DNA from: Chiloscyllium plagiosum
Taxonomy: Eukaryota
Direction of reading: 5' to 3'
DNA: 64,000 nt
Assembly: GCF_004010195.1 (NCBI RefSeq)
Contig: NC_057718.1
Span: forward strand, 49,050,021-49,114,020
Under the pieces are notes generated by a model that saw only the letters and a list, made by a program, of their open reading frames with translations, was not told where the DNA came from and ran no database searches. Below, piece by piece: positions 5,616-58,149 of this stretch. Numbering within the stretch: position 1 is the stretch's first letter; each line of letters opens with the position of its first letter. The position numbers and the translations under genes were made by a program.

Positions 5616-5818
5616 AAAATTGAAAGATCTGCAGTTGCTGTAAATTAGAAACAAAAACAGAAATTGCTGGAAAAGCTCAGCAGGCCTGGCAGTATCTGTG
5701 AAGAGGAATCAGAATTAATGTTTCAGGTCTGGTAACCCATCCTCAAGGCATTAACTCTGATTTCTCTTCAGAGATGCTGCCAGGCCTGCTGAGCGTTTCC
5801 AGCAATTTCTGTTTTTGA
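5616..5818. mobile_element. PLE family D collapsed inverted pair
   Basis: Arms aaaaacagaaattgctggaaaagctcagcaggcctggcag / ctgccaggcctgctgagcgtttccagcaatttctgttttt; TSD tccttaacYaaatg at 5602-5615 and 5819-5832. Confidence 0.8.
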
Positions 5819-7507: not shown

Positions 7508-7547
7508 GAGTTCTGAGGAAGGGTCACTGGACCCGAAATGTTAACTC
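7508..7547 (+). ncRNA. Minimal type I hammerhead motif (PLE family D), start of a solo arm running to about 7625
   Basis: gagtt-CTGAGGA-a-gggtc(actg)gaccc-GAAA-tg-TT-aactc: 5-bp helix I, 5-bp helix II; predicted cleavage after 7542. Confidence 0.75.
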
Positions 7548-9600
7548 TGATTTCTCTCTCCACAGATGCTGCCAGACCTGCTGAGCTTATCCAGCAATTC
7601 CTATTCTAGTTCCAGATTTTTGCAGTTGTGGCAGTAATCGAGCCTCCGAAAATAGACAATTAAGCCGGGCCCAGCAACAGGGAAAGAAGTGTATTTAAGG
7701 GCCTCACAGCTGTCAAAACTTAAAACTTAGTCCGAGCTCTACAAATGCATTGCTGCCTCAGAGCTTGCATTCTGAAAACCCTATCCTAAGGTTACACATT
7801 GGGAATCCCTATTCTATAATGTCAGACCCCCTGGCAAAGTCTTATCTGTTTCAACATAACCATTTCCCATTCTTCTAAATTCCATCATAACACCAATCTC
7901 ATCAGATGTATGTGCATAAAAAGCAGTCATTGAGACTGTGCAGACTTATCAGAAAGTTGCAAGAAAGGAAGAGAGTAGTATATCTGTTGTTATGAAACTA
8001 GAAAAGAGGTCTGTCATAGAGTGAAAAAAATGTTCAATGATAATCTTCTGAGGGAAAGATCTATTCATTTCTCCCTCAGCTGTAAAGGTAAACATCAGGA
8101 TCCCACATGCATGTGCAAAGGGTGGAATACATCTTTAAGGCAGCTATTAGTAACTTCTACTGTTTCAGCCACTGTGGCATAGAGCATCTTTCTGGTGCAC
8201 TTGTGGCTCATGACATAGTTCCAAAATTAAAATGTTTGATCTAATTTTATCGCCGAAAAAATGTTTAATTGTGCCCTCTATTGGAACTTGAACTCTGAAG
8301 ATTGTTAGTCCAGAATCTCTGTGGAAGGCCCACTGGGGTGAATGCAGAGTGGGTCAAGACACATAAAATATATTAAAAAGACAGATTTGCTGCATCTGTA
8401 CTTTAAAAGTGAATTCCAGTATACTGGTATACATCTGGTCTCAAAACAAACACATCAGACCAAAAACTCAAACTAAAAGATTTCACTGTTTTGGAACTTG
8501 TCTTTTCAGTCCAGATTACATTTTCTTTCTAGATTACATGTTCACCATCCATGTCAGTTGCTAATATTTTATATCAATACACTAATTTTTAAATTACTTA
8601 TGGAGTTATTGTGAAAGGGAAAGGAAAGGGTCAAAATATCTTTCCTATTTTTAAAAACATAAAGCAAAGTCGGCTATGGTGAGGTTTGTGGCAGAATCAA
8701 ATGACAGGTCTGATGAGGCCCATCTTAAGTTTGAAGTAAGCAAGCTGTGTCACTTGTGCTTTTGCCAAGCCTTGTTAATGAAGGCAGATTATAATTTATT
8801 AAATGGCTTCTAATGTCATTACATTCTTCATTAACATAAAGCTTCCTATCTTTCCAAACAAGCTAGATGTTGATAATTCTTAACATGGAAGTCAGAGTGA
8901 GTACCTGACAACTTCAGCACACCATTTGCTCCAAAGCTTCTCCATGTTGGACATGGGCACCATCCAATATGTGCCAGCCTTGAAGAACCCACAAGGCACA
9001 TTTCTGTTCCACTCAAGGACACTTCTACCCTTCAATGCTATGCCTTGAGCTGTTGACAGCTGTCATTGTAATTCTGCTGAGCTAAATATATTGCAGTCTA
9101 TTGAAACAAAGGCATTTTAAAAAATATTTTTGTTAATGTCAAGTCAAAAAGTCTAGTATTTATAGGAAGGCTTTCATGTCCTTGGGGCATCCCAGAGCAC
9201 TTGCCAGTTAAGAAGTGTTTTTTGTAATGCTGTCAGCATTGTAATATGATCACACTGTGCACTCAGGGGGAAGGGGGGTGGTGGGTCACCCAGCAAATGG
9301 ACTGGACCAGGCTGAATCTGTGGGGTCTTTGCTTTCTTCATGTTGTACACATTCTGAGCCGAACTTGATGCGCCCAGTATCCCTGTCATGCCATTCCCTG
9401 CCTTTTTATGCTTTGTCTCTTCAGCCAGATTCATGAGGCTCATATTAATCATGTCTTGACTTGCCATTAAGTGCGGACACAAAGCCAGGAGGAAACTTGT
9501 CATGGTTGTCATCAATCTTCAGCCACTTCACTGAACATCGTCTTTGCTCAGGGGAGTTGGCACAGTAAGCCAAGAGCAGCTTCCAATACCAGTCAGTAGC

Positions 9601-11518: not shown

Positions 11519-13076
11519 GTGGACCTGATCAGGTGTACCCTAAAACTCTGTGGAAAACTAGCCAAGTGATTCCTGGGCCCATTATTAAGATATTTGTATC
11601 ATCGATAGTCACAGGTGAGGTGCCAGAAGACTGGAGGTTAGTTAATGTGGTGCCACTACTTAAGAAAGAGGGGAAGGAAAAGCCAGGGAACTATAGACCG
11701 GTGAGCCTGACATTGGTGATGGGCAAGTTGTTGGAGGGAATCCTGAGGGATAGGACGTATATGTATTTGGAAAGGCAAGAACTGATTAGGGATAGTCAAC
11801 ATGGCTTTTTGCATGGGAAATCATGTCTCATGAATTTGATTGTTTTTTTGAAGAAGTAGTGAAGAGGATTGATGAGGGCAGAGTAGTAGATGTGATCTAT
11901 ATGGAGTTCAGTAAGGCGTTCCACAAGGTCCCTCATGGTAGACTGGTTCGCAAGGTTAGAGCTCATGGGACACAAGGAGAACTAGCTATTTGGATAGAGG
12001 ACTGGCTTGAAAGTAGAAGACATAAGATGGTGGTGAAGGGTTGCTTTTCAGACTGGAGGTCTGTGACCAGTGAAGTGTCACAAGGATTGGTGCTGGGTCC
12101 ACTACTTTTCGGCATTTATATCAATGATCTGGATGTGAACATAGGAGGTATAATTAGTAAATTTGCAGATGACACCAAAATTGGAAGTGTAGTGGACAGC
12201 AAAGAAGGTTACCTCAGAGTACAAAAGGATCTTGATCAGATGGGCCAATGGACTGAGAAGTGGCAGATGGAATTTAATTCAGATAAATGTGAGGTGCTGC
12301 ATTTTGGAAAAGCAAATCAGAGCAGGACTTATACATTTAATGGTAAGGTTCTGGGGAGTGTTGTTGAACAAAGAGACCTTGCAGTGCAAGTTCATAGTTC
12401 CTTGAAAGTAAAGTCACAGGTAGATAGGATAGTGAAGGTGTTTGGTATGCTTTCCTTTATTGATCACAGCAATGAGTACAGGAATTGGGAGGTCATGTTG
12501 CGAATGTACAGGACATTGGTTTGGCCACTTTTGGAATATTACATGTAATTCTGGTCTCCTTCCTATCGGAAAGTTATTGTGAAACTTGAAAGGGTTCAGA
12601 AAAAATTTACAAGGATGTTGTCAGGGTTCGAGGATTTGAGCTATAGGGAGAGATTGAATAGGCTAGAGCTGTTTTTTCTGGAGTGTCAGAGGCTGAGGGG
12701 TGACCTTATAGATATTTATGGAATCATGAGGGGCACAGATAGGGTAAATAGACAAAGTCTTTTCCCTGGGGTGGGGGAGACCAGAACTAGAGGGCATAGG
12801 TTTAGGGTGAGAGGAGAAAGATATAAAAGGCACCTAAGAGGCAGCTTTTTCACGCAGAGGGTGGTACGTTTACGGAATGGGCTGCCAGAGGAAGTGGTGG
12901 AGGCTGGTACAAATACAGCATTTAAAAGGCATCTGGATGGGTATATGAATAGGAAGGGTTTAGATAGATATGAGCCAAGTGCTGTCAAATGGGACTAGAT
13001 TAGGTTGGGATATCTGGTCGGCATGGACTAGTTGGACTGACGGGTCTTTTCCATGCTATACATCTCCATGACTCTG
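11519..13076 (+). mobile_element. 5'-truncated CR1/HER1 LINE, RT pseudogene (frameshift and stop)
   Basis: ORFs 11482-11859, 11823-12548 and 12579-12998 carry PGNYRPVSLT, SQHGF, SKAFHKVPH, QGLVLGPLLF, KFADDTK, RGHRFRV; 3' tail ...ccatgactct. Confidence 0.95.
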
Positions 13077-18712: not shown

Positions 18713-20039
18713 TTTTTATTTAATCAGATGGATTGTATGGAAGTCATAAGGAAAGTTCAGCTTTTCCCTATTCCCAGTGATGAACTCCTGTCACTAATAC
18801 ATTTATAGCTCATCGTGTCAGCCAACTGCCACTTACCATTGCTTTTAGGCAGGATCCTTACAGTCTATGCAGATAAGGACTGCAAGTCAATGTATCCTGT
18901 GTCTTACATTGCAGAGAAGATGAAAGTTTGCTTTCCAATTTGCACAACACATTTCCCCTAACTTCCCAATGATTTAAAATCAGCTCTTTAACTATGAAAG
19001 GATAGTCCAAAGAAATCTGTAAAAGGAAGTTAGGCCCAACTTTCATCAATTTATTAAATACTAGAAAATTGCTGGCCAGATGAGATGACAGGTAGAGATG
19101 GTGAGACATTGATTTGTTCATTTATATATTGGGATACAATTCACATAATAGAATAAAATCGCACATGAGATGTTTATTTATAATTGGTTTGGACACAAAA
19201 GCATTCATCCATCTACTTCCACAACTTAGAAGGATGCAGTAGAGGGAGGGAATGATGTTGGGGTCGGCCAGGGTGTGTCAAAGATTACACTATCAAGTTT
19301 ACCTAGCAACACTTTTCATTGTTATAACTCCCAGTTCCATTGGATACTGGATATCAAACAGTAAAGGTAAATTCCAATGGTATGTAACACAGAATCTAAT
19401 TATGAGTTAAACCAGTGATGTTGAACATATGAGATTGTTGTTCAAATCCAGTTAGGAGGGCTGAACTATTCCTTTCGTTGTCTAACTCTTCCACTGGTCA
19501 CAATAAAGTTTGATTTTTATTTAAAAAGGGACTAATTTACACTACTGTATATAGTTCAGTATCAGAAACAAGTCAGCCAGGTTCCTCAAATAAGAAGTAA
19601 AAGATGAACGTATTGCAAATAAAAAGTTTTTTGAGCAAAAATGTTCAAATTATTAGCAGAAGGTGTAAACTGCACAAATGTATATATTTTACCCTTTTTG
19701 AAATCTGGGAAAATGTATAGACACAAAATAACTGTTACATTCAGGGAAAAGAATTATTCATAGGTTGTGAAAAATGTTCACCTATAGCTGAAGTTGTTTT
19801 GCAACCCAATTGTTGTCTTTCTGATTAAATTATAGCTTGATGAATTTGGTTTTATGGAGACAGTGGTATAGATTTTAATGAGGTTTTCAGCACACAAAAC
19901 CTTGATGAGATGGATTTTAGAGAAAAAAAAGAGGGCACAAGTTATTATTCTGGATGGAGGTTATCTCAGACCCTCTATGAACTAATCTATTCTTTTTTTC
20001 ACCTATAACTTGCAGCATGTGATGTCCCACTAAAAGTGC

Positions 20040-20360
20040 CAAAATTGGAGGTGTAGTGGACAGGGAAGAAGGTTACCTCTGAGAACAATGGGACCCTGAT
20101 CGCAAGGGCCGATGGGTTGATAGGCTGAGGATTGGCAAATGGAGATTAATTTAGATAAATGTGAGTTGTTGCATTTCAGTAAGGCAAATCTGGGCAGGAT
20201 TTATACACTTAATGGTAAAGTCCTGGGGAGTATTGCCAAATATAGTGACCTTGGGGTGCTTGAAGGTGGAGTCACAGGTAAATAGGATGGTGAAGAAGGC
20301 ACTTGGTATGCTTGCCTTTACTGTTCAGTGCATTGATTATAGGAGGTGAGATGTCATGTT
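20040..20360 (+). mobile_element. CR1/HER1 fragment, 5' part of a copy split by a nested insertion
   Basis: Collinear with about 12177-12499; resumes at 23369. Confidence 0.85.
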
Positions 20361-23300
20361 AGAGAGTCATAGAGACTTACAGAGATGTACAGCATGGAAA
20401 CAGATCCTTTGATTCAACTTTTCCATACTGACTAGATATCCCAAATTAATCTCATCCCATTTGTCAGCATTTGGCCCAGATCCTTTCAAACCCTTTCTAT
20501 TCATATACCCATACAGATGCCTTTTAAATGTTGTAATTGTACCAGCCACCAACATTTCCTGTGGCAGCTCATTCCATACATACATCACCCTCTGCGAGAA
20601 AAACCTGGCCTGTAGGTCCCTTTTAAATTTTTCCCGTCTCACCCTAAACCTATGCACTGCAGTTCAGGACTCCCCCACCCCAGGGAAAAGACCATGCCCA
20701 TTTATCCTACCTATGCCTCTTGTGGTCCCTCATTTCCAATGTTCCAAGGAAAACAGCCCCAGCCTGTTCATCCTCTCCCTGTAGCTCAAATCCTCCAACC
20801 ATAGTAACATCCTTGTAATCTATTCTGAACCCTTTCAAGTTTCACAATATCCTTCAGTTAGGAGGGAGACCAGAATTGCACACAGTATTCCAAAAGTGGC
20901 TGATATAATTTCCTGTATAGACAAAACATGACCACCCAAATCCTATACTCAATGCTTTGTCCAAAAAAGGAAATCAGATCTCCACTGTTCTATCTACCTG
21001 TGACTCCACTTTCAAGGAATTATGAACCTGCACACCAAGGTCTCTTTGTTCAGCAACACACCCAGGAGCTTACTATTAAGTGTATAAGGCCTGCTCTGAT
21101 CTGCCTTTTCAGAATGCAGCACCTCACATTTATCTAAATTAAACTCCATCATTCACTCCTCAGCCGAAGGGATCTGATCAAGATCCCTTTGTACTCTGAG
21201 GTAACCTTCTTCGCTATCCACTACACTTCCAATTTTAGTGTCATCTGCAAACTTACTAACTCTACCTCTTATGCTCACATTCAAATCATTTATATAAATG
21301 ACGAAAGTAGTGGATCCAGTACTGATCAATGTGGCACACCACTGGTGTGGATCCAGTACTGATCAATGTGGCACACCACTGGTCACAGGCCTCCATCTGA
21401 AAAGCAACCCTCCACCAGCACCCTCTGTCGTCTACCTTCAAGACAGTTCTGTATCCAAATGGCTAGCTCTCCCTGTATTCCATGAGATCTAACCTTGTTA
21501 ACCAGTCTACCATGAGGAACCTTGTTGAATGCCTTACTGAAGTCCATATAGATCATATCCACTTCTTTGTTACTTCTTCAAAAAACTCAATTAAATTCAT
21601 GAGACATGATTTCCCATGCACAAAGTCATGTTGTCCATCCTTAATCAGTCCTTGCTTTTCCAAATGTATGTAAATCCTGTCCCTCAGGATTCCCTCAACA
21701 ACTTGCTGATGTCAGGATCACCGGTCTATAGTTCCCTGGCTTTTCCTTACCACCTTTCTTAAATAGTGGCACCATGTTAGCCAACCTCCAGTCTTCTGGC
21801 ATCTCACCTGTGACTATCAAGTATCTCAGCAAGTATCTCAGCAAGAGGCCCAGCAATCACTTCCCTAGCTTCCCACAGAGTTCTAGGGTACACCTGATCA
21901 GGTCCTGAGGATTTATCTACCTTTATGCATTTTAAGACATCTAGCACCTTCTCCACTGTAATGTGGACATTTTCCAAAATGTCACCATCTATTTTTCCCC
22001 ACATTCTATATCTGTCATGTCCTTCTTTACAGTAAACACTGATGTAAAATACTCATTTAGTATCTCCCCCATCTCCTATGGTTCCACACATAGGCTGCCT
22101 TGCTGATCTATGAGGTACCCTATTCTCTCCCTAGTTACCCTTTGTCCTTAATATATTTATAAAATCCCTTTGGAATCTCCTTAACCCTATTTGCTAAAGC
22201 TATCCCATGTCCCCTTTTTCCCCTCCTGATTTTCCTCTTAAGTATATTCCTACTGCCTTTATACACTTCTAAGGATTCACTCGGTCGATCCTGTCGATAC
22301 CTTACATATGCTTCCTTCTTTTTCTTCACCAAAACCTCCATTTCTCTAGTCATCCAGCATTCTCTACATCTACCAGCCTTGCCTTGCATCTCAACAGGAA
22401 CATACTGTCTCTAGACTCTGGTTATCGCATTTCTGAAGGCTTCCCATTTTCCAGCTGTCCCTTTACCTGCGAACATCTGCCCCCAATCAACTTTTGAAAG
22501 TTTTTGCCAGTACCATAAAAGTTGGCCTTCCTCTAATTTAAAACTTCAACTTTTAGATGCAGTCTATCCTTTTCCATCACTATTTTAAAACTAATAGAAT
22601 TCTGGTCATTGGCCACGAAGTGCTCCTCCACTGACACCTCAGTCATCTGCCCTGCCTTATTTCCCAAGAGTAGGTCAGGTTTTGCACCTTCTCTATTAGG
22701 TACATCACATACTGAATCAGAACATTTTCTTGTACCTACTTAACAAATTCCTCTTCATCTAAATCCTTAACACTATGGCAGTCCCAGTCGATATTTGGAA
22801 AGTTAAACACCCCCACCATAATTACCATATTATTCTTACAGATAACTGAGATCTCCTTCCAAATTCACTTCACAATTCCCCGCTGACCATTAAGAGTCTA
22901 TAGTACAATCCCAATAAGGTGATCATCCCTTTTCTATTTCTCAGTTCCATCCAAATAACTTCCCTGGATATATTCCCAGGAATATCCTCCCTCAGTACAG
23001 TGGTAATGTTATCCCTTATCAAAAATACTGCTCCCCCTCCTCTCTTGCTCCCCTTTCTATCCTTCCTCTTGCATTTGTATCCTGGAACATTAAGCTGTCA
23101 GTTCTGTCCATCCTTGAGCCATGTGTCTAATTGCTATGATATCCCAGTCACATGTTCCTAACCATGCCCTGAGTTCATCCATCTTCCCTGTCGGACCCCT
23201 TGCATTGAAATAAATGCAGTTTAATTTACCACTCCTACCTTGTTCTCTGCTTTGTTCCTGCCTGCCCTGACTGTTTGACTCACTCCTTTTCCCTATTGTA

Positions 23301-23368: not shown

Positions 23369-23945
23369 CATGATGCAGCTGTACATTGGTTAGGCCATTT
23401 TTAGAATTCCGTGTTCAGTCCTGGGCTTTCTGCTATAGATGTTGCTATACTTTAAAGCTTTCAGAAAAGATTTACAAGGACATTGCCGGGTCTGGAGGAT
23501 TTGAGCTATAGGGAGAGGTTGAATAGGGTAGGGCTATTTTCCCCGGAGCATCGGAGGCTGAGATGTGATCTTATAGAGGTTTATAAAGTCATGAAGGGCA
23601 TGGATTGGGTGAATCGCCAATTTCTTCCTCCCAGGGTAAGTGAGTCCAAAACTAAAGGAAGTAGGTTTAAGTTGAGAGAGGAAAATTCAAAGAGATCTGA
23701 GGGGCAACTTTCATGCAGAGTGTAGTGTTTGTATGGAATAAGCTGCCAAAGGAAGTGGAGGAGGCTGGTACAATTACAACATTTAAAAGTCATCCAGATG
23801 GGTGTATGAATAGGAAGGGTTGTGAGGGAGATGGGCCAAATGCTGGCAAGTGGGGCTAGCTTAATTTAGGATACTTGGTCAGCATGGATGTGTTGGACTA
23901 AAGGATTAATATTGGTGCTATAAAACTCTACAACTTTATGACTCA
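23369..23945 (+). mobile_element. CR1/HER1 3' part continuing 20040-20360
   Basis: Encodes LSYRERLNRVGLFS...RLRCDLIEVYK; tail tatgactc. Confidence 0.88.
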
Positions 23946-25765: not shown

Positions 25766-26033
25766 TTGCTGTGGTTCTGTTCGCCGAGCTGGAAGTTTTT
25801 GTTGCAAACGTTTCGTCCCCTGTCTAGGTGACATCCTCAGTGCTTGGGAGCCTCCTGTGGGACAGGCCACTATAAATGCCGGAGGAAACACCACAGACGC
25901 GCTTCACAGGAGGCTCCCAAGAACTGAGGATGTCACCTAGACAGGGGACGAAACGTTTGCAACAAAAACTTCCAGCTCGGCGAACAGAACCACAGCAACG
26001 AGCACCCGAGTTACAAATCTTCTCACAAACTTT
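25766..26033. mobile_element. PLE family B inverted-pair mini-element
   Basis: 94-bp arms 25766-25859 and 25905-25998 with one mismatch, a TATAAA-containing spacer and a tail on the right arm only; perfect TSD ggatcatacctt at 25756-25767 and 26034-26045. Confidence 0.9.
25804..25843 (-). ncRNA. Minimal hammerhead motif (PLE family B)
   Basis: gca-CTGAGGA-t-gtcacct(agac)aggggac-GAAA-CG-TT-tgc; helix I gca/tgc, palindromic ACGU helix III. The plus-strand twin at 25921-25960 has a helix I mismatch. Confidence 0.75.
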
Positions 26034-28913: not shown

Positions 28914-30150
28914 TCATAGAGAGTCATAGAGATGTACAGTACAAAAACTGACCCTTTGGTCTAACTCATCCATGTTGACCAGATATCCTAAATTAATCAA
29001 GTCTCATTTGTCAGCACTTGATCCATATCCGTCTAACCCCTTTCTATTCATATACCCATCTAGATGCCTTTTAAATGTTGTAATTGTACCAGCCTGGCAG
29101 GTACAATTCACTGGCAGCTCATTCTACATACGCACTACTCTCTATGTGAAAAAGTTGCCTCTAAGGTCCCTTTTAAATTTTTCCCATCTCATCCTAAACC
29201 TATGCTCTCTAGTTCTGGACTCCCCTACCCTAGGAAAAAGATCTTGTCTATTTAGCCTATCCATGTCCCTCATGATTTTGTTAACCTCTATAAAGTCACC
29301 CCTCAGCTTTCAATGCTCCAGAAAAAATAGTCTCAGCCTGTTCAGCCTCTTCCTATAGCTCAAATCCTCCAACTCTGACAACATCCTTGTAAATCTTTTC
29401 TGATCCGTTTCAAATTTCACAACATTTTTCTCATAGGAGGGAGACCAGAATTGCACACAATATTCCAAAATTGGACTAACCAATGTCCTGTACAGCTGCA
29501 ACATGACCTCTCAACTACTGTACTCAATGCTCTGACCAATAAAGGAAAACCGACCAAATGCCTTCTTCATTATCCTATTTACCTGCGACGCCACTTTCAA
29601 GGAACTATAAATCTGCACTCCAAGGTCTCTTTGTTCAGCAACACTCTCTAGGATTTTACCATTAAGTGTATAAGTCCTGTTCAGATTTACTTCCCCAAAA
29701 TGCAGCACCTCGCACTTATCTAAATTAAACTCCATCTGCCACTCCTTAGCCCATTGGCCTATCTGATCAAGATCCCTTTGTACTCTGAAGTAATCTTCTT
29801 TGCTACCTAACACATCTCCAATTTTGGTATCATCTACAAACTTACTCACCAGACCTCTTATGTTCAAATTCAAATCATTTATATAAATGATAAAAAGCAA
29901 TGGACCCAGAACCGATCCTTGTGGCACACCACCGGTCACAGGCCTCTAGTCTGAAAAGCAACCCTCCACTACCACCACCATCTGTCTTCTACATTCGAGC
30001 CAGTACTGTATCCAAATGGCTAGTTCTCCCTGTATACCATGCGATTTAACCTTGCTATCCAGTCTACCGTGAGGAACCTTGTCGAATGCCATATAGATCA
30101 TGTCTGCCACTCTGCCCTCATCAATTCTCTTCATTGCTTCTTTAAAACAT
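28914..30150 (-). mobile_element. CR1/HER1 LINE 3' 1.2 kb, RT pseudogene
   Basis: ORF 29511-29939 GVPQGSVLGPLLFIIYINDL...KFVDDTK; tail catagagagtcatagag. Confidence 0.93.
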
Positions 30151-31734
30151 CAAGGTAGTTGCCAAAGTTCATTACTCAGCTCTTAAAAAGCTGATTGACC
30201 ATGAGTTTTCTTAGCACTAGCATAGAGCATGGCCTCAGGAAAGAGGGGTGCCAATTTAAGAATGAGACAATGAGGACTTATTTCTCTCAGAAGGTTATGA
30301 GTCTTTGGACTCTTTCTCATAGAGTCCTTGTATATATGGAAGGCTGCGATAGATGCTTGATCAGTAAGGGTGGTTGAGGGTTATGGGAAAATGCAGGAAA
30401 GCACGCAAGCAACATTGGATCAACCATGATCCTATTGAATGGTGGTGCAGGCATGACGAGCCGAACAGTCTGCGCCTGTTCCTACCTTTTTAAAGTCTGA
30501 TGGCCACTAGGGTAGAGGATTAGTTGACACTGAACACACCTGCCACCATACTTGGCCAGAAAAAGGGTAAATTGTGATCCTAAACTTTACTACCCACCCA
30601 TCCCCATTGCCGATGCTGCCCGCTGGTTGAGTTTTTTCAAACTGTTTTTGTTCAAATTTCCATGATCTCCAGTATTTTGCTTTTTAAATTCACCCTACAA
30701 GTGTTGTCGTGTCTCATTATGTCATTCAATCAGTATAATGATAAAGTTCAGCATGGCGAACAATACATTACCTGCAATAACATGATTCATTAACAGTATA
30801 GATTTTTTGATAATTTCTTTATTCCCATGATAATACTTACCCATCTATAGGAAACATTAAAAAATTAGATCAATAACAAAATTGTAAAACAAACACAATA
30901 CATAAAATTTCAAATTATATTGAATGTTTTCTGCTGGTAAACCACGAATGAATTTTATTGTGGATATTTTGAATACCCTATTCTTCTCAATGGGCAGCAT
31001 ACAAAACTCCTTTGTGGCTTCATATTTTGGAGATTACTTTTGTTACACAGGCCTATCTGCAGGATAAAGCTTTAGCCACAGTATGTAGATGGCTATGATT
31101 ACCATTGACTGGTTCATGACTTGTCTGAAAAACAGGTCAAGTTCTTTGCTTGTAAACAGCACCAAAATAGTTTCAGAAGAGTTTCTAATTGCAACTGATG
31201 AGCAACCCATCATATTAATCCTCTGCTATCAGCACTGTATACTCGTCTGTATAAGAATAGCCCTGATCTCAGCAGCTCTGTATTCAACCTTGGATTTCTT
31301 TTTCGACGTATTTGGAAACACCAGCTTCTTTGCCTGAGCCTCTGTGCACAAGAGGCAGACATGTGCTGGCTTTATATGGCTTGACGGCACACAATGAAAT
31401 CAGTTTCTGAGCAATTTTTATCAAGCCAAAAACTCGGCTCGAATTTTAAACCTTCTTCCCGTGTTACATCAATGCCAGATATAAATTTAAATGAAAGACT
31501 TCACAACCCATAAAATGATTTAAAAAAAAAGACACAGACACACAAAAGAGAAATGGTTTTAATTGTTTTAAAGAAGACTATGCCCAGCAGACATCTTGTT
31601 TGTACAGCATATTGCTGTTCCCATGCACTATTTATTTCTGGTAATTGGAACATGTAGATTTCTCCCGATTCTTCCACACACAATGAGCTTCCAAACCACA
31701 GTCATGCTACTTGGTCTTGGCCAGTCACTATCAT

Positions 31735-32338
31735 AGCTGAAAAATGTGTTGCTGGAAAAGTGCAGCAGGTCAGGCAGCATCCAAGGAACAGGAGAATAGA
31801 CATTTCGGGCATAAGCCCTTCTTCAGGAATGAGGAAAGTGTGCCCAGCAGGCTAAGGTAAAAGGTAGGGAGGAGGGACTTGGGGGAGGGGTGTTGGAAAT
31901 GCGATAGGTGGAAGGAGGTCAAGGTGAGGGTGATAGGCCGGAGTGGGGTGGGGGTGGAGAGGTCAGAAAGAGGATTGCAGGTTAGGAAGGCGGTGCTGAG
32001 TTCGAGGGATTTGACTGAGACAAGGTGGGGAGAAGGGAAATGAGGAAACTGGAGAAATCTGAGTTCATCCTTTGTGGTTGGAGGGTTCCTAGGCGGAAGA
32101 TGAGGCGCTCTTCCTCCAACCGTCATGTTGCTATGGGCATTTCCAACGCTCCTCCCCCAAGTCCCTCCTCCCTACCTTTTATCTTAGCCTGCTGGGCACA
32201 CTTTCCTCATTCCTGAAGAAGGGCTTATGCCCGAAACGTCGATTCTCCTGTTCCTTGGATGCTGCCTGACCTGCTGCACTTTTCCAGCAACACATTTTCA
32301 GCTCTGATCTCCAGCATCTGCAGTCCTCACTTTCTCCT
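31735..32338 (-). mobile_element. Penelope-like element 3' end with GIY-YIG C-terminal remnant and inverted pLTR (family A)
   Basis: Minus strand 32036-32135 reads IAT*RLEEERLIFRLGTLQPQRMNSDFSSF (PLE endonuclease C-terminus). Inverted arms of about 167 bp at 31735-31902 and 32137-32303; TSD ccagtcactRtcatag at 31721-31736 and 32339-32354. Confidence 0.9.
32209..32244 (+). ncRNA. Minimal hammerhead core (PLE family A), weak helix I
   Basis: attc-CTGAAGA-a-gggc(ttat)gccc-GAAA-C-GTC-gatt; helix I has only 3 of 4 pairs. Confidence 0.65.
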
Positions 32339-32984
32339 CCAGTCACTGTCATAGGCAAAGAGGAATCAGCAGGTAAACGGCACAACTTTAACATTACAAT
32401 TCTAATATGTGACTAATTAATAGTTGTTTGCTGGTATAGAAGTCGAGTACTGTAGTTGAATTACTTTTAAAACAGTAGCTCTGTAGAATTGACAAACTAC
32501 TTAGGATATTGCTGAAGACGGACATATCTCATCAGATTATTTTTGTCTTGCACTCAGAACAACTTGCAAGAGACACCAAAGTAAAAGGATAACATTTATA
32601 CTGTTCAAGAAGAGAGGGCTGATTGGTGGAATCAAGGGCATAGCTAATTGCAAAGGGTGGTGCAGTGGCATTTTCCCTACCTCTAGGCCAGGAGCCCTGT
32701 GATCAAGCCCCACCTGCTTCAGAGCTGTGTAATGACATCTCAGAATAAGTTGACTAGAAAATAACTTTTTTTTGCAGTCAAGTTTACTTTTAAATCACAA
32801 AGTGTACCCACATAGACTGCATTGCCATGAGAACCCCATGGGGTTCCATGTAAAATGCTTTTGATTGAATGACACCTTGCACTTTTCTAATGTGTCGATA
32901 GAATGTTTGCCATATTTGAATTTACAGCTGCACATTTACTTTCTTTACATATCTTTATGTGCTACATCTTGCACTCCAATTTCC

Positions 32985-34004: not shown

Positions 34005-34191
34005 GAGGTGCCGATTGTTGTGACTAGGGTGGACAAAGTCAGAAGTCACACAATACCAGGATACAGTCCAATAGGTTTATTTGAAACCACAAGCTTTCGG
34101 AGCACTGAAGAAGGAGCAACGCTCCGAAAGCTTGTGATTTCAAATAAACCTGTTGGATTATAATCTGGTGTCATGTGACTTCTGAGTTTTA
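34005..34191. mobile_element. PLE family C inverted-pair mini-element
   Basis: ...cacaagctttcggagca joined to CTGAAGAaggagc(aac)gctccGAAAGCTTgtg; TSD acaaatagcaaWgctStg at 33987-34004 and 34192-34209. Confidence 0.85.
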
Positions 34192-34846: not shown

Positions 34847-34993
34847 AGGAGAAAGTGAGGACTGCAGATGCTGGAGATAAGAGTGGAATGTGGTGCTGGA
34901 AAAGTACAGCAGTTCAGACAACATCTGAGGAGCAGGAGAATCGACATTTCAGGCATAAGCCCTTCATCAGGATTCCAGCACCATACTCTCGAC
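34847..34993 (-). mobile_element. PLE family A arm with a short inverted remnant
   Basis: ggagaaagtgaggactgcagatgctggag...gacatttcaggcataagcccttcatcagga, then ttccagcaccatactctcgac. Confidence 0.82.
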
Positions 34994-35659
34994 CAAGTGA
35001 TAATGGCTGTACTCAGTGGACACAAATGATCTCAGCACCAAGTTATCACTGTAAGAGATCCACAGAGCAATATCCAATAATTTATTATCTGCAGTTGCTT
35101 CAGTATTAACCTTTCTTTTATCATAAGATCCAAAGCTGAGCTGTTCACTAGTGATTGCGGTGTTCAGTTGCATTCCCAACTCCCACATACAGCACGACAT
35201 ACACACCATTCAGACTTGGGCTGACAGGTGGTAAGTAACAGTCAATCCACACCAGTGTCAGGCAATGACCATTTTCATCAAGACAGCCTAGTTATATTAT
35301 GCAAGATATGGATTACTTTTATTGGATCATTATTGACCTGAAATTCAAAAGGAGTAGCCAAATAAGTACTGCAACTGCTACAGGAGGTCAAATGCTGTGT
35401 ATTTTGCTTTATTTTTGACATCCCAAAGCTACCTGACCATGGAAATTAAAGCCAGATAGGTTGCAAAACAGGCTTCCAATTTGCTTGTGCTGAATTTCCA
35501 CCACCACCCAAGACAAATTTCATCTCTCAAGAGATTGGTCAATGTTCCAATTTAAGGTAGAGCAAAGCAGATCACTGACTGATGGATCAGAAATCAATGA
35601 AGAAAGATGATCACAAACATATTAAATAGAATCACAGCACAACAACATTAGACAGATTA

Positions 35660-39438: not shown

Positions 39439-39909
<471 letters not shown>

Positions 39910-40183: not shown

Positions 40184-40515
40184 ACGGGTTAATAGACAAT
40201 ATCTTTTCCCTGAAGTGGGGGAGTCCAAAACTAGAGAGTATAGGTTTAGGGTGAAAGGGGAAACAAATTTAAAAAAAAAGGGACCTAAGAGACAACTTTC
40301 ATGCAGAGGTTAATGTGCAATGGAATGAGCAAGTGGTGGAGGCTGGTACAATTACAACATTTAAATTACAACATTATCTGGATGGGTATATGAATAGGAA
40401 GTGTTTAGAGGGATATGGGCCAAGTGCTGGCAAATGGGACTAGATTAGGTTAGATATCTGGTCAGCATGGACGAGTCGGACTGAAGAGTCTGTTTCCATT
40501 CTGTACATCCATGAC
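40184..40515 (+). mobile_element. CR1/HER1 3' end in the last DUSP10 intron (antisense to the gene)
   Basis: Collinear with about 12740-13070. Confidence 0.88.
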
Positions 40516-42897: not shown

Positions 42898-43266
42898 CAA
42901 TGAATTCAAAGGCCTCTTCGAAGTATTGCCTGAGATTCTGCTTGTTGCTATCAGTGGCAGGTAGCCGTTTGTAACGGAAGATACCTTTCTCGTAATGGTA
43001 AAGAGGCAGATGGGTAGTTACATTGATAATGTAGCCAACATTCATCCGCTGCATTTTTTCAATATCCTGAGCATCCTGCTCATTTCCAAGAAACAGGAAG
43101 GGTAGGATGGGGGTCAGCTCTGCATTTTCAATGTCAGGGGTAGTGGGGATGGACTGAGGTAGTTGAGTTGGAATTGCTGAGGCTGCCCCTGCATCTGGGC
43201 ACTCCTGAAGTTGCAGAGAATGATCACAGAGATTCTCGTGGTGTTGCTTGAAACTGCTATGTCCAC
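42898..43266 (-). CDS. DUSP10: DUSP10/MKP5 penultimate coding exon (end of rhodanese-like domain, linker, first half of DSP catalytic domain)
   Basis: Translates as [22 protein letters not shown]...[29 protein letters not shown]...[25 protein letters not shown], recognisably vertebrate DUSP10. Polypyrimidine tract plus AG acceptor at 43268-43267, GTAATT donor from 42897; 369 bp, phase 1-1. Confidence 0.97.
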
Positions 43267-46921: not shown

Positions 46922-46991
46922 GGGGGAGGGGGAGGGTAGAGGGATAGAGAGAAGAGAGGGGAGAGGCGAAGAGGAGAGGAGGGGAGAGAAA
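46922..46991. repeat. Polypurine (G/A) low-complexity tract
   Basis: gggggagggggagggtagagggatagagagaagagagggg... Confidence 0.85.
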
Positions 46992-47345
46992 ATCAGGCTC
47001 CAGTGCCTACCCTGTAGGTTTCTCTACCTCATACTTATTCAGTTTTCCACTAAAAGCTGTAATGATCTCAGCCTCGCACTTCTGCCAAAAAACATTCAAC
47101 ATGCTTCAACAGCGCATGTAAAATAAAATCGTAAAATCAAATCTCCAACTGCAAGATGTTTGAACATAACTACCGCTCCCACAAATTCCTCAAATCATGA
47201 TTTTCCTTATCCTCCAAAGAGCATTAGCCAAAGTAAAGAATGACACTTGCTGGCTGTAATAACTGTACACTATTCATTTTTAAAAATCTTTTTGTTTTTA
47301 AACAGTCATTAAGCCACACCGTTGTCCTCCACATTATACAGCTTC

Positions 47346-47560
47346 TGTGTTGCTGGAAAAGCGCAGCAGGTCAGGCAGCATCCAGGGAACAGGAGAATCG
47401 ACGTTTCGGGCATAAGCCCTTCTTCAGCCCTGAAGAAGGGCTTATGCCCGAAACGTCGATTCTCCTGTTCCCTGGATGCTGCCTGACCTGCTGCGCTTTT
47501 CCAGCAACACATTTTCAGCTCTGATCTCCAGCATCTGCAGACCTCACTTTCTCCTCAAAG
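47346..47560. mobile_element. PLE family A perfect palindromic mini-element
   Basis: 82-bp arms 47346-47427 and 47430-47511 are perfectly complementary with a 2-nt loop; perfect TSD attatacagcttc at 47333-47345 and 47561-47573. Confidence 0.95.
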
Positions 47561-49496
47561 ATTATACAGCTTCATTTGACTTGGTCCACAGCATCTCAAG
47601 CTCAGGGTCTCGCGTCTCTCGTCATGACTCCAATATTTCATGTTGGCATTATGCTGATAAATTTACACCAGGTGTCCTCCCAATGGCTTTAACATTAACT
47701 CTTCATTCTGGGACACTGGGCTGTGCACCAATGATTTGCACAATGTTGTTAGCACTTCTTTATTAGGATTTCTAAAATATCATTGAATTTTTCCATAGTT
47801 TTATGTATTTTCACTCTCAGGAAATTATGTATCCAAAAACAGTGATCAGTCTTTTCTTCATTTATAGTTCCAAGAGTATTAAACCAATAATGAAACACAT
47901 TTTAAGAGACATCTAATAAAATAACAATTCAAGTATCAAAGTATTCTGTATAGTGCCATAAGTAGAGATCAGTTGATGTTGTTATCCATAAGCAGCCAAG
48001 GCTGCTCTAGCCATGTGTCTGGATTCAACAATAACCTTCCAGAAATTTCTTCAAAATCAATGTCAGCCAGACCATCAACACCCAAATACATCCTAATGGG
48101 TGTGGGATGATATAATCAGCTACAAGAAAAAACTCACATCAGAATTGCAAATCCCATAAGATGATGATGTGTTAAATGATTTTCTACATAGCCAACATGA
48201 TCCATTCCAGAGCTCATTTGAAATTTATCTCGATGGCAACTGCTTTATCTTCTAAAGGAGACCTGGTCATGTGACTCAGTATTTAACCCAACTGCCTGAA
48301 GTAGTATGCAATTTTTAAAAAAGTATCAGAGTTTAGTGGTCAGTTCTGCTTCATATTATATGTACTGACCAAAAAGATCCTTAATTCCAGACAACAAAAA
48401 GCAAAGCTCAGGGCCTGTTAAAAGCAACCATGAATCTGTTTTTTGTGCATTCTGCAAGTAAGTAAAGTAGAAGTCACATTGACAAAAAAAAAGGTTCTCT
48501 CAAAAGATCTGAAGAAATTTACAAAGAAACTCTACAATTCAAATGCTGGCTAGCCAATTCACGAAGCCCCAAATGAGATTTCAGACCAACTACAACAACT
48601 TTGGACTTTGACTTCATTGCAAAAGCAAAGACATCAATAAACTGTTTGCATTTAAGCTGACACTAATTACATACTCTCCTTTGATTTTGTACATTTGCAG
48701 ATGTTCATGTGTTGAAAGACACTGGCTGGGGAGGAGAGGAGTTCAAGTGTATGAAATAAATCCCAGTTCTGGTTTAACTCTACCAGAGTGGTTTTGTGGT
48801 CCTTACAAAAGTCTTAGGCCATAAGTAGATGAAGTTAGTAGGGTGCAGAAGAAAGAAGCATGAGAAGACAAAAATAAAATACAGTTGTTAAGAAAAAATA
48901 AAATTACCTGCTTACAAACAGGTGGAGAGAATAGGGAGGGAGATTTGCTTTGACACATTTCTACTCTGGACAAATATCATGACCCTAATTACCATCTGCT
49001 TTTAAAAAATGAGTTTGAAGTCCAGTTAACATCCAACTAGATAACTGTTTAATACATTCTATCTTTCAGTCTCACATGTACTTGCAATAACCTCTCATTG
49101 AAACATTTCCTGGTTTACTTTCTGAATTTGCTGGTGATGAGCTATTTGTTTTACCTTTTTTGTTTCATTGTGATTTTCATTTTTAATTAATAGAATATCA
49201 GAAAGCTAACAAGAGGAACTGATAGCTCAAATAATTATAACAGGAATATGGTGGAATTAATGCATGTTAATCATACAAAAGAGAAGTGAGTCATTACACT
49301 CCTCAACATGAACCTAAATCTCTTTGGACTTTTGTTTTTAGATTTTCACCATTCAACAGAACTGGGATCTACAAATTTAAAGCAAAACGAATGCCCCACA
49401 GTTAACTAGTGAAATTAATCCATTACAGTTTCATTTATGCACTTCATTCTTCTTGCAATTTTCTGTTCCAACTATGTTACACACTACAAATAAAAC

Positions 49497-49710
49497 AGTC
49501 AAGATTAGAGTGTGCTGGAAAAGCACAGCAGGTTAGGCAGCATCCGAGGAGCAGGAAAAAAAAAAACAAAAAACCAAACAAAAAAATAATTAGACGTTTC
49601 GGACAAAATGATTTTCCTGCTCCTTGGATGCTGCCTGACCTGCTGTGCTTTTCCAGCACCACTTTAATCTTGACTCTAATCTCCAGCATCTGCAGTTCTC
49701 ACTTTTGCCA
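49497..49710. mobile_element. PLE family A-related inverted pair with centre deleted
   Basis: Arms gtcaagattagag..gctggaaaagcacagcagg / cctgctgtgcttttccagc..taatcttgac; approximate TSD acaaataaaacagt. Confidence 0.85.
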
Positions 49711-56685: not shown

Positions 56686-56916
56686 GGTTAGAGTGGTGCT
56701 GGAAAAGAACAGCAGTTCAGACAGCATCCAAGGAGCAGGGGAAAAAAAAAAATCAATGTTTCGGGCAAAAGCCGTTGATCAGGGATACCCTGATGAAGGG
56801 CTTTTGCCGAAACGTCGATTTTCCTGCTCCTTGGATGCTGTCTGAATTGCTGCACTTCTCCAGCACCACTACTCCAGAATCTGGTTTCCAGCATCTGCAG
56901 ACACTGTTTTTACCAA
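56686..56916. mobile_element. PLE family A-related inverted pair
   Basis: Arms meet at atcagggataccctgat; perfect TSD gttaaatgttaca at 56673-56685 and 56917-56929. Confidence 0.88.
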
Positions 56917-57931: not shown

Positions 57932-58149
57932 AGCTGAAAATGTGTTGCTGGAACAGCGCAGCAGGTCAGGCAGCATCCAGGGAATAGGAGAATCGACGTT
58001 TCGGGCATAAGCCCTTCTTCATTCCTGAAGAAGGGCTTATGCCCGAAACATTGATTCTCCTGTTTCCTGGATGCTGCCTGACCTGCTGCGCTGTTCCAGC
58101 AACACGTTTTCAGCTCTGATCTCCAGCATCTGCAGACCTCACTTTCTCC
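57932..58149. mobile_element. PLE family A palindromic mini-element
   Basis: Arms of about 90 bp meeting at cttcttcattcctgaagaag; TSD cttaa(a)ttgtttaaa at 57919-57932 and 58150-58164. Confidence 0.92.

Follow-up and report, generated by a model that had tools for sequence, protein, structure and literature searches.

A perfect 82-bp hairpin in DUSP10 intron 2 of Chiloscyllium plagiosum is a head-to-head insertion of two 5'-truncated Penelope-like element pLTR ends

In the window, a 64,000-nt stretch of Chiloscyllium plagiosum DNA, an intron of DUSP10 is interrupted by a 228-bp insertion made up of two head-to-head, 5'-truncated pLTR ends of a Penelope-like element (PLE). The insertion is real, clean and fairly young, and it is an ordinary PLE product with a layout already published for these elements. 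With high confidence we take it to be one insertion with a 13-bp target duplication (TSD), likely produced in a single event and likely without function in DUSP10. This reading is based on the boundaries of the insertion, an empty site in a relative, the repeat family, the ORF motifs of the parent element and stereotyped arm ends.

As shown in Table 1, the insertion contains two arms. They pair over 82 nt each (47346-47427 and 47430-47511), are 100% complementary, lie 2 nt apart and hold four CpGs apiece. The apex side of each arm opens with a minimal hammerhead core (CUGANGA, one extra A, a 4-bp stem II, GAAA, AC-GU and C17). The perfect back-to-back hairpin with its 2-nt spacer, the intact CpGs, the two hammerhead cores and the perfect TSD of the preliminary description were all recovered. 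RNA folding of the hairpin strand gave -180.5 kcal/mol (z = -25.5), and none of 200 shuffled sequences was equally stable. The insert is asymmetric, the right arm alone bearing a tail of 44 nt and 5 further nt.

Table 1. Positions of the hairpin insertion, its parts and related features in the window.
Feature	Position	Strand	Remark
TSD, left copy, 13 bp	47333-47345		Present as a single copy at the empty site of organism B
Inverted tail-less pLTR arm, unit positions 1-82	47346-47427	-	Sense copy in DUSP10 pre-mRNA; flank contigs of X1, X3 and X7 enter the arm
Minimal hammerhead core, left arm	47400-47427	-	Predicted cut after 47400; apex side lacks the helix I pair
2-nt apex	47428-47429		One base matches the natural upstream context of the element; the second is either mutated or untemplated
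Direct pLTR arm with tail, unit positions 1-126	47430-47555	+	Antisense to DUSP10
Minimal hammerhead core, right arm	47430-47457	+	Predicted cut after 47457; helix I is one Watson-Crick pair, then a mismatch
PLE tail region, one arm only	47512-47555	+	Length 44 nt; typical family members have about 35 nt
5 nt separating the element from the TSD	47556-47560	+	Not common to other copies; untemplated, or the template RNA continued
TSD, right copy	47561-47573		Identical to left copy; joined at the empty site of organism B
DUSP10 exon downstream of the insertion, start of phosphatase domain	42898-43266	-	
Longer head-to-head copy, same young subfamily	31730-32339		Inverted arm continues ungapped into the end of the PLE endonuclease ORF
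Older head-to-head palindrome, same family, DUSP10 intron 2	57932-58149		About 94% arm identity
Older head-to-head palindrome, same family, DUSP10 intron 2	56693-56902		About 90% arm identity
Older head-to-head palindrome, same family, DUSP10 intron 2	49513-49705		About 95% arm identity; A-rich filler at apex, without intact core

DUSP10 lies on the minus strand. Besides the exon in Table 1, a second phosphatase exon was located at about 39439-39704, and the rhodanese-type exon, whose donor is phase-compatible, is situated about 8.2-9.2 kb past the window end. These flanking exons bear out the intronic location proposed earlier. The hairpin sits in intron 2, which is ~29 kb long, and the acceptor is 4.07 kb away. 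In the upstream coding exon (L001:8138-9217, minus strand), Pro- and Ala-rich stretches are found ahead of the rhodanese-type domain. Intron 2 holds seven insertions of the pLTR family, four of which are palindromic.

Read-derived contigs from 4 of the 24 listed runs were compared with the window: X1, X3 and X7 from organism A, and X11 from organism B, a related species. One X11 contig runs from 47332 straight to 47561, which is an empty site with a single repeat copy, and the flanks of organism B differ from the window at 25 of 866 letters (about 2.9%). In organism A, contigs of the unique left flank reach into the inverted arm to 47368 (X1, X3) or 47355 (X7). On the right, contigs of X1 and X3 lead from the tail (47538/47539) into the unique flank, and the X7 contig begins past the junction. 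In X3 the insert is carried by another flank haplotype, for which four SNPs are listed, two of them common to organism B. At 46937, 46943 and 46944, within a purine-rich tract, all three organism-A samples differ from the window (organism B at two of the positions); these are private variants or assembly errors.

No contig listed from the four runs spans the whole insertion or its own apex, and young long copies of the family are often found at assembly gaps, as a fold-back artefact of the assembly or library might have it. Such an artefact is nevertheless scarcely credible, since three samples enter the left arm, inverted, from unique flank, two reach the right flank from the tail, the empty site agrees with the TSD, and decayed palindromes with TSDs are common.

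The insertion postdates the split of organisms A and B and is relatively young. Its age is only loosely bounded, because perfect 82-bp arms would still occur with a probability of about 0.09 at the age of that split. The preliminary description had called the insertion very young and perhaps polymorphic. Absence from a relative about 2.9% diverged agrees with youth, whereas the extreme youth read from the perfect arms is weakened by that probability. As to polymorphism, the left junction was filled in three of three organism-A samples, among which no empty allele was listed and no contig stopped at the TSD as expected of a heterozygote; this comparison is limited by the loss of rare variants from contigs, by the low depth of X3 and by the possibility that the assembly was made from X1.

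The parent element was approached through the longer head-to-head copy at 31730-32339, which is 94-98% identical to the unit. In this copy, and also in L126 and L149, the young pLTR is linked without a gap to the C-terminus of the endonuclease (EN). A protein search of the genome from the ORF fragment gave 94,123 first-look candidates, of which 150 were scored and 20 loci returned; 10 more loci were fetched. A pLTR match, mostly 80-88% identical to the unit, was present in all 20 returned and 10 further loci. The ORF loci contain RT motifs, a CX4CxxC linker and a GIY-YIG core with internal cysteines. The linker lies between RT and EN in L061, L075, L083, L088 and others, and L085 contains RT motifs, linker, EN and pLTR in that order, with frameshifts. 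The Pfam GIY-YIG model (PF01541) scored above its cut-off in one of three EN stretches, and RVT_1 gave a weak match below cut-off (E 0.026) in one of two proteins. A PDB search with the RT region returned no match, and NCBIfam gave a weak group I intron endonuclease match only. Atlas returned unnamed animal clusters with PF26215, which serve as a lead only.

Among the 30 ORF loci, which hold only truncated, broken or gapped copies, the young subfamily is not represented by any intact full-length element. The link between the young subfamily and RT crosses an assembly gap (L045), and the copies in which RT, EN and pLTR are joined without a gap are 80-88% identical to the unit. The longer young PLE insertions at L026, L045, L126, L130 and L149 coincide with runs of N, so that the youngest long copies are under-represented in the readable sequence. 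A CX2-5CxxC linker between RT and EN marks Neptune and Nematis (PMC8557442), and a preprint reports Neptune and Poseidon as the only PLEs of vertebrates (10.64898/2026.07.22.740005). Judged from these sequence motifs, the parent is a very abundant Penelope-like element, probably of Neptune type; Nematis, which has the same linker, is set apart by host range alone. A literature search on shark PLE pLTRs, with most subscription papers and Repbase/Dfam outside its scope, found no description of this family.

The window holds 10 insertions of the pLTR unit, five of them head-to-head. Other hammerhead repeats, palindromes or solos of at least three families with differing helix II, are present at 25766-25998, 34035-34189, 5652-5817, 7513-7619 and 201-310, the 7513 copy having a helix I of 6 bp; these repeats probably belong to other PLE families of like layout. 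Decayed copies of a LINE-type RT ORF, which we take to be CR1-like, lie at 11521-13075, 20039-21905, 23369-23944, 28914-30153 and 40186-40515.

For the genome, 100 spread 10-kb loci on chromosome-scale contigs (951,132 non-N bases) were sampled. They contain 132 insertions, 43 of them head-to-head; the gap is at most 30 nt in 27, and 21 of those have both arms of at least 60 nt. Young insertions are head-to-head in 19 of 40 cases. Rough extrapolation to 3.56 Gb gives about 494,000 insertions, among them about 79,000 tight palindromes. Head-to-head counts by BLAST are lower bounds: the copy at 34847-35010, which was scored as solo, has an inverted stub of ~18 nt at its 5' end. A 6-bp helix I that had seemed ancestral in the 34847-34970 copy was rejected on account of this short stub at the copy's own apex. 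In the spread sample together with 264 kb around the window, close pairs are head-to-head in 36 cases and tail-to-tail in none. The arms of close pairs are perfectly identical in 3 of 28, the others ranging from 83.5 to 98.9%. Among 31 head-to-head pairs, a flanking direct repeat of 12-17 bp was found in 19 and one of 7-9 bp in three, and none was found in nine.

Many copies are alike in size and apex region, which could suggest a MITE- or retrozyme-like mini-element, palindromic and non-autonomous, that is duplicated in its entirety. We consider this very improbable: apex junctions and outer arm ends vary from copy to copy, the arms are head-to-head rather than tandem, and the copies grade continuously into ORF-bearing ones.

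The arm ends are stereotyped. Young tailed arms end at unit 125-126 in 20 of 20 cases and young inverted tail-less arms at unit 82-96 in 14 of 15, where the tailed arm is by definition the one with the longer 3' end and the flanks of the copies past 126 are unrelated. In the family the tail is about 35 nt and is carried by one arm only. At the other side, 49 young gap-free arms were scored. Fifteen continue into the ORF or 3' UTR, 10 of them identified by script and 5 on inspection of the sequence context, 29 start at -4 to +11 of the core, four start further in and one is ambiguous. Short young arms hence begin within -4 to +11 in 29 of 34 cases, with the ambiguous one between -59 and -5; the interval was picked after viewing the data, and microhomology blurs the boundary by a few bases, so that a P value for the clustering has descriptive meaning only. 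This 5' boundary coincides with an initiator-like motif (YYANWYY). It may be a transcription start or a stall of reverse transcription at the hammerhead. Templates cut by the ribozyme were also considered and found unsupported: 10 BLAST arms begin at unit 27-32, mostly what appear to be alignment breaks at decayed CpGs, and none occurs in the young N-free set.

The following course of insertion would account for this anatomy. The GIY-YIG nuclease of the element would cut both strands 13 bp apart, and each 3'-OH would prime reverse transcription on pLTR RNA. One cDNA would start at the outer site (unit 125-126), yielding the tail, and the other about 35-45 nt further in (unit 82-96). Both would extend to about the same 5' boundary just ahead of the hammerhead core and be joined at the apex, often via a few bases of microhomology. 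The hammerhead cores, minimal and dimer-dependent, would be passengers.

In such a scheme the inverted arm is a cDNA of its own. A different origin of the mirror arm has been proposed for PLE insertions, in which inverted pLTRs with TSDs and palindromic junctions are found and head-to-head is the most frequent arrangement: a single cDNA folds back at the apex and copies itself (PMC3846280). The perfectly identical arms and the 2-nt apex of the hairpin locus suit this self-priming, as do the rare variants that both arms have in common (11 sites in 12 young pairs, compared with 29 sites that differ), but shared variants also follow from a common source RNA. Of 24 young pairs, four were dropped for gaps; in the 20 scored, the arm that extends further 5' is the tail-less one in 11 and the tailed one in six, and three scored as equal; on inspection two of the equal pairs joined the tail-less class (13/20). 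Fold-back of one tail-primed cDNA gives only the class with the tailed arm further, so the six pairs fit it, whereas in 11-13 of the 20 the tail-less arm has element sequence that its tailed partner lacks, amounting to hundreds of bases in some pairs (31730 copy, L091, L042). Nor does self-priming explain why inverted arms end at unit 82-96. We regard it as doubtful for these insertions. In the hairpin copy itself the tailed arm reaches 1 nt further, which is compatible with either model.

On stereotyped arm ends and junction anatomy alone, we favour two separately primed cDNAs that would stop near the initiator-like site. A PLE protein was shown to cut and extend both strands, with two RT start sites bounding the tail (PMC11167929); the PLE promoter has been placed in the pLTR (PMC2377424). 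Going further, we put forward tentatively, at somewhat short of even confidence, that the short palindromes may arise by double target-primed reverse transcription, as run-off products copied from the 5' pLTR of the PLE mRNA. In this view a dimeric RNP would use the two start sites that bound the tail to prime the two cut strands, and both cDNAs would terminate at the true 5' end of the RNA, an initiator-like site located 4 nt ahead of the hammerhead core. The start of 29 of 34 short young arms within -4 to +11 of the core would follow from this. A literature search, most subscription papers being outside its scope, found no recent paper on the PLE insertion mechanism that deals with this pLTR family.

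Features of minimal hammerheads (min-HHRs) are present in the element, namely the catalytic core, helix II, the extra base at 9/10.1 and a palindromic helix III. Rfam gave no match at gathering score in the whole window and no hammerhead family at E<=10, which is no evidence against the motif because min-HHRs are without a helix III loop. A miRNA precursor was rejected, the matches being generic hairpins far below cut-offs (best 65 bits, 90 needed). Helix I is weak in the natural context of the element (two pairs, U-U, one pair). At the hairpin locus, helix I of the plus-strand core is reduced to one pair followed by a mismatch, and in the DUSP10-sense core the first pair is missing.

Min-HHRs were defined, and pairs on opposite strands noted, in PMC4209133, where the monomer does not cleave and dimers cleave at a low level; the dimer dependence is reviewed in PMC6765202. 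The PLE protein assists the hammerhead, and the main template is uncleaved RNA (PMC11167929). A second sense copy is needed because helix III is a loop-less palindrome. Each RNA strand of the insertion carries one sense core and one antisense copy, and folding predicts a core almost fully paired, in keeping with the earlier statement that either strand yields a core paired to its own antisense copy. The preliminary description went on to see a self-silencing design, which is not supported. Minimal PLE hammerheads need a second sense copy or the PLE protein and helix I is broken here, so the core is predicted to be inactive even without the hairpin. The ribozyme is likely dead at this locus through truncation, and the hairpin would be redundant for silencing. 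As for design, head-to-head pairs are a routine by-product of PLE insertion (PMC8557442; PMC3846280), as the 36 close pairs indicate.

Long dsRNA in DUSP10 pre-mRNA had also been proposed. From folding, the transcript would form a duplex of ~82 bp, and to that extent the proposal stands; it is not special to this insertion, since the three older palindromes of the family in the same intron would do likewise. Long intronic duplexes are ADAR substrates. Action of ADAR, Drosha or Dicer is plausible and would be the same for any such repeat, not special to DUSP10. A literature search, again with most subscription papers outside its scope, found nothing on this pLTR family regarding editing of shark intronic inverted repeats. 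The transcribed intron and the predicted perfect duplex might also be taken as signs that the hairpin is under selection to regulate DUSP10, acting on the gene as a dsRNA switch or self-silenced ribozyme that is edited or made into small RNAs. This is highly improbable: the insertion is absent from organism B, the intron contains four such palindromes and the genome an estimated 8e4, older pairs decay freely (arm identity 84-95%), the nearest splice site is 4 kb off and helix I is lost. A DUSP10-specific role is unlikely.

The hairpin locus itself matters little: near-identical by-products are estimated to number tens of thousands, and a close relative lacks this one. For the inverted arms of PLEs, self-priming has been proposed (PMC3846280), and extension of both strands and two RT start sites have been shown (PMC11167929). 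The junctions in this genome form a very large natural set, which favours two separately primed cDNAs and a fixed 5' boundary and is of modest use in the question of how inverted arms are built. If the short palindromes are run-off products, the ~80,000 of them would preserve in the genome a trace of how PLEs insert and would be, much as Alu is, a large source of dsRNA in introns.

Compared with known systems, the insertion falls among those of EN+ PLEs. In PLE insertions an inverted 5'-truncated copy lies adjacent at the 5' end, and a tail of 30-40 bp is found at one end (PMC8557442). Pen2a_Av (PMC3846280), the elements of PMC8557442 and Penelope of D. virilis (PMC2377424) have in common with the present case the head-to-head inverted pLTR, the tail on one arm, the TSD, the 5' truncation and the pLTR hammerhead. 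Unlike insertions of the Pen2a_Av or Penelope type, no ORF lies between the arms here, and both are cut back to the hammerhead core in a 228-bp insert. TSDs are 12-17 bp here and 8-10 bp in the rotifer examples, and copy number here is very high. With Neptune-clade PLEs the element shares the linker, CX4CxxC falling within CX2-5CxxC, and EN stretches with internal cysteines.

With the metazoan PLE min-HHRs of type I (PMC4209133) the cores share the conserved core, the extra nucleotide between 9 and 10.1, the G10.1-C11.1 pair and the palindromic, loop-less helix III. Helix II is 4 bp here but 7-8 bp in Schistosoma min-HHRs, and helix I, in contrast to the min-HHRs of that source, is weak in natural context and lost at the hairpin locus. 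PAc, a Poseidon of Anolis (PMC11167929), likewise has two fixed 3' ends bounding the tail and copies that include uncleaved hammerhead sequence, whereas it belongs to another clade, Poseidon, without the linker motif, and head-to-head products are not described in the available part of that source. Non-LTR retrozymes (10.64898/2026.07.22.740005) are also short, non-coding, hammerhead-bearing and PLE-derived, but theirs are tandem head-to-tail repeats, while the present insertion is a head-to-head pair.
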